From a virus (lineage: Duplodnaviria > Heunggongvirae > Uroviricota > Caudoviricetes), in the IMG/VR virus record IMGVR_UViG_2778261246_000001, positions 1 through 35,852 of that record: DNA of 35,852 nt; one strand, 5' to 3'. Positions 30,565 through 31,355 of this stretch are shown piece after piece (positions within the stretch are counted from its first letter, which is position 1; each line of letters begins with the position of its first letter). A program made the position numbers and the translations under genes. The notes under the pieces were generated by a model. That model made no database searches and had not been told where the DNA came from. It was given only the letters and a program-made list of their open reading frames with translations.

Positions 30565-31026
30565 ATGAGGTTATGGATGTTTATTCTTAATCAGAAAATT
30601 ATCATCAGTGGAGAACGCTGGTTTACGCCAATGAAGGACTTAAAACCTGTAGACGGGTTAAAACTGTTGGTGGCAAGCAGCGATAACGATCAGTATCGCT
30701 CCCGTAATGCATTAATCCGTCGCCACATTGAGAAAATGGATGCCAGTTTGCACGTCGGAACGAAGGAGTTTGATATTTCAAAGGTTTCCGAGGTGGATTC
30801 TGTTGATGATTTACTCATTGATAATGCGGCTCGTTATCTGCTGAAAGACTGGAAAGGGGTTGGTGAACTGGTTGATGGTGTTGAGGTTGTACTGGAATAT
30901 ACGCCAGAACGAGGGATCGCGCTGCTTAAGCAGAATCCAGAGTTGTACTGGCAGCTCCTTGCAGAAGCAGCTAGCATCGCCCAGGGAAAAGAGCAGCAGA
31001 AGCAGGATACGATAAAAAAGCCATAG
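30565..31026 (+). CDS. Tail assembly chaperone (lambda G-like), 153 aa
   Basis: Position between major tail and tape measure; ends just after the slippery heptamer A-AAA-AAG (31014-31020). Confidence 0.55.
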   Translation: MRLWMFILNQKIIISGERWFTPMKDLKPVDGLKLLVASSDNDQYRSRNALIRRHIEKMDASLHVGTKEFDISKVSEVDSVDDLLIDNAARYLLKDWKGVGELVDGVEVVLEYTPERGIALLKQNPELYWQLLAEAASIAQGKEQQKQDTIKKP

Positions 31027-31355
31027 CTGCCCAGCGGTGGTTATCTGAGTTCGGGGGAGAAAAGGGTGAAAAGGCAAGATGGAAGCGAGAAAAACTCAGG
31101 TTGCCGCCGCTCCTGGAGCCAGAAATAGACCCCGTTGTCCGTGAGTTATTGTATGCGTATTCAGTAATGTCTCGTTCTAGGCGTTATGCAGGCATGTCCG
31201 GGGTTCCGCTGCCTTTGTCAATATCTGACATACACGACTATTTAAAAGCACACCCAATATTGATAGATAGTGATGAATTTGAAGCAGTGATCTTTGCGCT
31301 GGATGACCAGTATGTTTCTCAATCCAAAACTTTTGATGGGATATTGATTAATTAA
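30565..31355 (+). CDS. Predicted -1 frameshift product of the tail assembly chaperone (lambda GT-like fusion)
   Basis: -1 frame ORF open from the slippery site to the stop at 31353-31355; architecture matches the conserved G/GT arrangement upstream of tape measure genes. Confidence 0.5.

Follow-up and report, generated by a model that had tools for sequence, protein, structure and literature searches.

Does the gene for the tail assembly chaperone in IMG/VR virus record IMGVR_UViG_2778261246_000001 direct the synthesis of one protein or of two? The window analysed here is the whole 35,852-nucleotide (nt) stretch of this Caudoviricetes record (positions 1 to 35,852), which is an Escherichia coli prophage. 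In it, the G-like chaperone open reading frame (ORF) stops shortly after the heptamer A_AAA_AAG, and a second frame, called T below, stays open far beyond that stop. A first-pass annotation of this DNA had proposed a programmed −1 ribosomal frameshift at this point. Our analysis supports this interpretation, as all the sequence features of a G/GT arrangement were found: an ORF pair located between the tail tube and tape measure genes, a heptamer in register, a −1 ORF devoid of a start codon and conservation of these elements in relatives. We consider it very probable that a lambda G/GT-type programmed −1 frameshift at A_AAA_AAG yields a short G protein and a long GT protein.

The G/GT arrangement was defined by Xu, Hendrix & Duda 2004, as cited in PMC5009743, where the work on lambda G/GT is attributed to Levin, Hendrix & Casjens 1993 and Xu, Hendrix & Duda 2004, 2013, 2014. 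Low-level frameshifting between G and T is widely conserved in long-tailed double-stranded DNA phages despite low sequence similarity (PMC5009743). In lambda, G and the low-abundance GT are made at about 30:1, both are needed for tail assembly and neither is found in the virion; G acts by binding the tape measure protein and T by recruiting the tube (major tail) protein (PMC5009743). The corresponding elements of the window are the following (aa, amino acids).

30577..31026, + strand: G-like tail assembly chaperone ORF in the zero frame, 149 aa plus TAG; matches phrog_313; located between the tail tube and tape measure genes

31014..31020, + strand: heptamer A_AAA_AAG, slippery and in X_XXY_YYZ register with the G frame; proposed −1 tandem tRNA slip site

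31020..31355, + strand: T-like −1 frame segment of 111 codons with a final TAA; proposed to be reached only via frameshifting

join(30577..31020, 31020..31355), + strand: GT product, a conceptual fusion of 259 aa

30984..30990, + strand: a further heptamer in frame, G_GGA_AAA, from which the same open −1 frame can be entered in this window; probably incidental

The region 30400-31600 was read directly and its frames were recomputed. The chaperone ORF may open at 30577 or 30565 and ends on the + strand with a TAG at 31024-31026. ATG 30577 is most likely the true start, rather than the upstream in-frame ATG 30565, because a GAGG (30567-30570) sits 6 nt 5' of it, homologues of G begin at the equivalent Met and, at locus L061, an in-frame TAG separates the two candidate ATGs. 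The sizes of 149 aa for G and 259 aa for GT follow from this start. At the site, the zero-frame codons read ACG, ATA (31012), AAA (31015), AAG (31018), CCA (31021) and TAG. The heptamer is thus in frame, one codon ahead of the TAG, with a heptamer-to-stop distance of 10 nt. The −1 frame is free of stops from 30975 to the TAA at 31353-31355. Counted from the first A of the heptamer it comprises 113 codons, i.e. 111 new residues beyond Lys-Lys, and it extends 109 codons past the G stop. Its earliest ATG, GTG or TTG is the TTG at 31101, and the 27 codons leading from the heptamer to this TTG contain no start. The +1 frame is shut after 10 codons. The first-pass annotation had placed the ORF end at 31026, the heptamer at 31014-31020 and the end of the open −1 frame at 31355; these coordinates were all right, and its estimate of about 110 added residues compares well with the 111 counted here.

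Could such a configuration arise by chance? AAAAAAG is present in 22 copies in the window, versus 12.9 ± 3.5 expected from shuffles. Heptamer frequency was dropped as evidence, since this heptamer by itself is common in the window, and the case consequently rests on context and comparison. The 66 ORFs of at least 90 aa in the six frames were scanned for an in-frame X_XXY_YYZ in their last 150 nt combined with a −1 extension of at least 100 codons. Among the real genes of the window, the full configuration was found in the G ORF only; the sole other case was a spurious ORF (26888..27199) lying inside the capsid-region ORF 26524..27756. By our own arithmetic, 113 stop-free codons would be expected in random sequence with a probability of (61/64)^113, about 0.004.

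The locus was compared with 80 viral contigs, 14 genome loci of other species and several phage records. The close set comprised 84 sequences, 48 of them distinct, and the distant loci displayed 51-79% identity in G. A_AAA_AAG was unchanged throughout the close set (84/84) and was present in 11 of the 14 genome loci, the remaining ones (L092, L094 and L097) having G_GGA_AAG. Its distant carriers belong to Citrobacter, Siccibacter, Scandinavium, Dryocola and a Klebsiella phage. Conservation of both slip site and −1 peptide extends over loci of Escherichia, Shigella, Salmonella, Citrobacter, Klebsiella, Raoultella, Siccibacter, Scandinavium, Dryocola and Pantoea. Absence of the −1 extension from related phages had been named in the first-pass annotation among the results that would speak against frameshifting; what was observed is the opposite, with extension and slip site both conserved. 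The zero-frame stop lies 10, 28, 82 or 112 nt past the heptamer, depending on the relative. The −1 frame is open for 102-121 codons across relatives, and for 102-116 codons in the close ones alone, save for three close relatives (41, 52 and 63 codons) which are probably degraded copies. Further away, the Pseudomonas phages phiPSA1 and Aurca01 (L100) possess a T-like domain, 33-40% identical, behind a chaperone ORF of an unrelated family; GGGAAAG is present in such phages but in the XXX_YYY_Z register.

The heptamer found at the homologous position in Raoultella L092 and in Pantoea L094 and L097, G_GGA_AAG, is that of lambda, as verified in the lambda sequence. The swap from GTA_AAA_AAG to GTG_GGA_AAG consists of a Lys-to-Gly replacement plus a synonymous Val change that restores X_XXY. 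A coordinated change of this kind is what selection on slipperiness would predict. Synonymous sites are saturated at this distance (proportion of synonymous differences, pS, about 0.8-0.9), yet the three wobble positions of the heptamer keep X_XXY_YYZ.

Like the anatomy and the comparative conservation, the coding signature of T was directly observed. The −1 peptide is kept from the first post-slip residue (A[IL]xAQxWLxEFGGExGEKAxWxREKLxLPxxPEPEID...). In 11 sequences sharing 50-77% identity, T has 29 invariant columns spread from position 4 on, and 11 invariant residues are located ahead of position 27. Variable columns in G number 42, 27 and 118 at zero-frame codon positions 1, 2 and 3, respectively. 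In the interval 31021-31100, which precedes any possible start, the variable columns by −1 frame codon position are 9/26, 8/27 and 22/27. When the first 30 codons past the heptamer were compared with nine distant loci, pS was 0.70-1.07 and the proportion of nonsynonymous differences (pN) 0.16-0.29 in the −1 frame. In the two control frames, pS was lower than or equal to pN in 15 of the 18 comparisons and the three exceptions were marginal (pS vs pN 0.38 vs 0.32, 0.40 vs 0.34 and 0.38 vs 0.32). These data point to purifying selection on T in the −1 frame only, beginning at the heptamer.

Such a signature bears directly on the idea that T is an independent gene with internal initiation at TTG 31101 or at an ATG further on, and overlaps the heptamer by coincidence. 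GenBank/RefSeq records of relatives do carry coding sequences (CDSs) for 58-66-aa "hypothetical proteins" in the T frame, and gene callers gave 14 such clusters. However, the 27 codons from heptamer to TTG 31101 are start-less yet conserved as protein, with the 11 invariant residues mentioned above, and these same codons show third-position variation, with pS far above pN in the −1 frame only. Moreover, the annotated starts vary from record to record, and an independent T leaves the heptamer-for-heptamer swap at the same position unexplained. We regard an independent T as very unlikely. The least probable of the explanations weighed here is that an originally single G-T gene in a decaying prophage was turned into a pseudogene by a frameshift mutation, or looks split through a homopolymer sequencing error. 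The site is indeed a six-A run, the prophage family includes the defective Rac element with its truncated ydaY copies, and one E. coli protein, P0001 (NB16F79_39920), is a natural in-frame G-T fusion of 240 aa with the junction ...LAEA|GYDKKAIAAQ.... But the two-frame layout was found in about 100 independent loci from at least 10 genera, isolated phages included, and seven complete E. coli genomes share 30517-32101 at 100% identity, as seen in strains such as RM10740 and ETEC1730. As for P0001, it does not represent an intact ancestor: judging from the protein only, its junction fits a 35-nt deletion between GCAGAAGCAG direct repeats (30961 and 30996), by which the frameshift would have been bypassed.

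The homopolymeric A run could also be used by RNA polymerase, which would add an extra A to the transcript. In bacteria, transcriptional slippage is efficient only on runs of some 8-9 or more, whereas the run has only six A here, and the G_GGA_AAG and GCA_AAG_TAA relatives, with three A only, have kept the same −1 extension. Transcriptional slippage, a known alternative route to −1 products (PMC5009743), is in our view highly improbable at this site. Equally improbable is a functional role of the upstream G_GGA_AAA (30984-30990), used either in place of A_AAA_AAG or together with it to produce two GT isoforms differing in about 10 residues. This heptamer is in the right register, the −1 frame is already open from 30975 in this window, and the same motif is present in L054, L057, L059, L061-L066, L071, L073, L074, L082 and L089. 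The commonest relatives, in contrast, read GGGTAAA, which puts a −1 frame TAA into the interval from one site to the other; others read GGGCAAA or AGGGAAA, and the −1 peptide encoded by this interval is not conserved. In addition, X_XXA_AAA is much less shifty in E. coli than X_XXA_AAG. As the main site, the upstream heptamer is excluded by the −1 stop found between the sites in most relatives; in this window it may contribute to a minor degree. The two sites predict distinct junction peptides: ...DTIKKAIAAQR for 31014 and ...IAQGKRAAEAGYDKK... for 30984.

Several results weigh against a lambda-type frameshift at A_AAA_AAG. The search for a downstream stimulatory structure, suggested as a check in the first-pass annotation, was negative by three approaches. 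Four folds around the site were no better than shuffles (z from +0.59 to −0.93), and the long-range helix of the 90-nt fold (−26.1 kcal/mol, z −0.93) is not conserved. A consensus fold computed from 11 diverse relatives was weak (−8.65 kcal/mol) with zero compensatory pairs, and its only local hairpin overlaps the heptamer itself. Scanning Rfam at permissive thresholds returned nothing at the site. Upstream, the sole sequence resembling a Shine-Dalgarno (SD) motif is an AGGA located 6 nt from the heptamer; in dnaX, the helpful SD-heptamer spacing is about 10-14 nt. In Erwinia phage Gungnir39 (locus L099, about 1680-1700), G ends with GTC GCA AAG TAA and T continues in the −1 frame from GTA. 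There is no canonical X_XXY_YYZ heptamer in this GCA_AAG_TAA context, which indicates that the family does not strictly need one and suggests, for Gungnir39, a single-tRNA A_AAG slip beside the stop codon. In comparisons with the lambda proteins, BLASTP failed to align G and returned E = 25 for T, and hhalign gave a probability of about 0.1% for both. Because similarity to lambda G and T is not detectable, the domain functions rest on position and on PHROG/Pfam labels. The AlphaFold model of G, built from a 14-sequence alignment, was too poor for fold testing, with a predicted local distance difference test score (pLDDT) of 60 and a predicted template modelling score (pTM) of 0.58. Finally, unlike the GT of lambda, that of the window is a predicted product.

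For the frameshift at A_AAA_AAG, which we nevertheless favour, we infer that slippage occurs, with what efficiency, and which partners G and T bind. The majority of ribosomes would read the G ORF to its TAG and produce the 149-aa chaperone. With tRNA-Lys on AAA in the P site and on AAG in the A site (31015-31020), a minority would slip one base back, re-pair on AAA-AAA (31014-31019) and resume translation at GCC (31020). Slipped ribosomes would then add 111 codons up to the TAA at 31353-31355, giving a minor GT-like fusion of 259 aa. By analogy with lambda, coating of the tape measure protein would fall to the common G part and recruitment of the tail tube protein to the rare T extension, with the G:GT ratio set by the fixed slip frequency. 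In E. coli, the intrinsic slippage of A_AAA_AAG amounts to a few per cent. As no stimulator was found, efficiency is taken to be at this intrinsic level, and slippage of a few per cent is expected here. This would suit a low GT:G ratio like the 1:30 of lambda. A_AAA_AAG is read by a single E. coli tRNA-Lys. The mnm5s2U point concerning tRNA-Lys is given in the figure 4 legend of PMC5009743. The prophage itself bears adjacent tRNA-Thr(UGU) and tRNA-Gly(UCC) genes (15114-15267), which are unconnected to the Lys-codon slip site.

How close is this locus to systems already described? As in lambda, two overlapping ORFs follow the major tail gene and precede the tape measure gene, the first ORF has an in-frame X_XXY_YYZ heptamer close to its stop (22 nt ahead of it in lambda and 10 nt in the window) and the second ORF is in the −1 frame without a start of its own. 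Sizes are comparable: 140 aa for G and 144 aa for the T ORF in lambda, against 149 aa and 111 aa here. The exact lambda heptamer is used by the three relatives cited above, L092, L094 and L097. The tail module is also lambda-like, with a Tape_meas_lam_C domain, a lambda M-like minor tail protein and a minor tail protein L. The differences are the heptamer (G_GGA_AAG in lambda, A_AAA_AAG in the window), the tail tube protein, which is of the Phage_tube_2 family here, and the Ail/Lom moron that sets T apart from the tape measure gene, T and H overlapping in lambda. Neither G nor T matched any lambda-type Pfam family. With E. coli dnaX (τ/γ), the locus shares the heptamer A_AAA_AAG itself. Unlike this site, dnaX has an upstream SD-like stimulator and a downstream stem-loop, neither of which is detectable here, and shifts at about 50% or more; its shifted frame ends almost at once to give a shorter product, whereas 111 residues would be added here. 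The direct sequence family of G is that of YdaY from the defective Rac prophage of E. coli K-12: homologous CDSs are named "protein YdaY" in RefSeq and GenBank, and intact Rac relatives share the tube-G-T-tape measure order, whereas truncated ydaY copies lack about the first 33 residues. The locus would thus represent the lambda mechanism in a different, YdaY/Rac-like protein family.

This family assignment is based on profile and sequence searches. G alone matched PHROG phrog_313 "Tail assembly chaperone" (E 2.9e-46, profile positions 13-149 of 258) and the −1 segment matched phrog_1189 (E 1.3e-30). The fused 259-aa GT matched phrog_313 in one stretch (E 8.6e-51, positions 13-248 of 258), from which it appears that this profile already holds full-length G-T products. 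In Pfam, T of the window gave a match to PF23812 Phage_TAC_18 of 19 bits (E 0.0015), below the 27-bit gathering threshold, and sub-threshold matches to PF23812 were obtained for T in 8 of 11 relatives (best E 4.7e-4). G had no match in Pfam or NCBIfam; its database homologues carry the precomputed accession PF27119.1, which is absent from the Pfam copy searched. A sequence search of solved structures returned only a chance match (E 0.61), and comparison of the low-confidence G model (pLDDT 60) with the PDB by Foldseek gave a meaningless best E of 2.1. A literature search on "ydaY" retrieved almost exclusively unrelated uses of the word.

The YdaY/phrog_313 chaperone family is also present in prophages of Klebsiella, Citrobacter, Salmonella and other Enterobacterales. 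In tblastn searches with the fused GT, all 19 phage records holding both parts (19/19) were matched as two pieces in two frames. A query extending over G, T and the moron found matches in 1071 of 5426 complete E. coli genomes, most of them to part of the query only. RefSeq describes G, by its C-terminal part, as a truncated 119-aa "hypothetical protein" or as "protein YdaY", and T either as nothing or as a 66-aa fragment. No joined CDS or frameshift annotation was present in the RefSeq/GenBank phage and genome records inspected. T was called as a gene in 14 clusters among 5.8 billion proteins, and such rare calls fit an ORF without a start of its own. Three E. coli proteins (P0017, P0019 and P0046) are G homologues cut at ...DGLKLLVASSDNDQY and joined to unrelated N-terminal sequences, one of them being named a ParB N-terminal domain protein; their breakpoint is that of the ydaY remnant copies in L090 and L091.

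The genes surrounding the G/T pair, and the insertion that follows it, are listed below.

29554..30516, + strand: tail tube (major tail) protein gene, upstream neighbour; Pfam Phage_tube_2 (E 4.4e-31), RefSeq "phage tail tube protein"

31319..32086, + strand: inserted moron between T and the tape measure gene, made of an Ail/Lom gene and a terminator-like hairpin; not part of the frameshift

31499..32035: Ail/Lom outer-membrane β-barrel gene; Pfam Ail_Lom (3.8e-27) and OMP_b-brl (1.2e-27)

32058-32086: terminator-like hairpin with a T-run, from a terminator scan; fold z −2.83

32102..35335, + strand: tape measure protein gene, downstream neighbour; Pfam TMP_2 (2.3e-81) and Tape_meas_lam_C (1.9e-25), phrog_24

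35328..35666: lambda M-like minor tail protein gene; Phage_min_tail (2.3e-30)

The lambda-like position upstream of the tape measure gene, as initially proposed for this chaperone, is correct insofar as the pair lies between the tube and tape measure genes; it is not directly upstream of the latter, since the 757-nt Ail/Lom moron intervenes. The moron has a guanine-cytosine (GC) content of 39%, versus 46% for the window. Homology with Salmonella phage SPF_0923 stops at 31318 and restarts at 32076 (757 nt), and relative to this phage the moron replaces about 150 nt and the last residues of T. Relatives without this Ail/Lom moron between T and the tape measure gene were found, and the layout including it, over at least 80% of the query, was observed in only 19 of the 5426 E. 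coli genomes. Among loci L001-L097 and L101, the gap between the T stop and the tape measure start ranges from about 30 to 1770 nt and contains differing cargo ORFs of 74-194 aa; in a Klebsiella phage it holds a "membrane protein". This junction looks like a hot spot for moron insertion.

A broader scheme, which we find rather unlikely as a whole, would combine these observations. The slip site would be plastic within one family (A_AAA_AAG, G_GGA_AAG and the non-canonical "A_AAG + stop" of Gungnir39), the heptamers at 30984 and 31014 would both feed the −1 frame to give two GT isoforms or a higher total GT:G ratio, and the T-to-tape-measure junction would be a moron slot, uncoupling translation of the tape measure gene from that of GT and giving T a different C-terminus.

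Other features were noticed in the vicinity. The gap separating the tail tube gene from G contains, at 30529-30555, a strong hairpin of 12 bp (CCCCCTGTGGTA...TACAGGGGG); the corresponding 64-nt fold has an energy of −24.4 kcal/mol (z −2.86) and no T-run stands behind it. In Citrobacter, Raoultella and Scandinavium, the same gap contains a different GC-rich hairpin followed by TTTTTT. The tube-G hairpin may attenuate transcription or stabilise the mRNA, lowering expression of the chaperone versus the tube protein. The stretch at 30459-30467 has a length of 7, 8 or 9 in close relatives and is absent from distant ones; it may be error-prone or slippage-prone, and a shift there would just shorten the C-terminus, as stops are met at 30503 in the −1 frame and at 30484 in the +1 frame. 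In the head-tail connector region, 28374..28757 is an intact ORF of 127 aa, the RefSeq equivalent of which in E. coli RM10740 (L083 1858-2241) is a "glutamate 5-kinase" pseudogene with an internal stop. The "glutamate 5-kinase" label is probably a misannotation.

Taken together, the locus is an ordinary, well-supported and so far unannotated case of a well-known kind of recoding, and it leaves our understanding of frameshifting and of tail assembly unchanged. The replacement of A_AAA_AAG by G_GGA_AAG at one homologous position provides a clean natural example of what would be selection on slipperiness rather than on the encoded residues. The main value of the finding concerns annotation. In the YdaY-family records inspected, a truncated CDS labelled "YdaY" or "hypothetical" stands beside an orphan fragment and the joined product is absent throughout; recognising GT would give the correct proteome for these phages.

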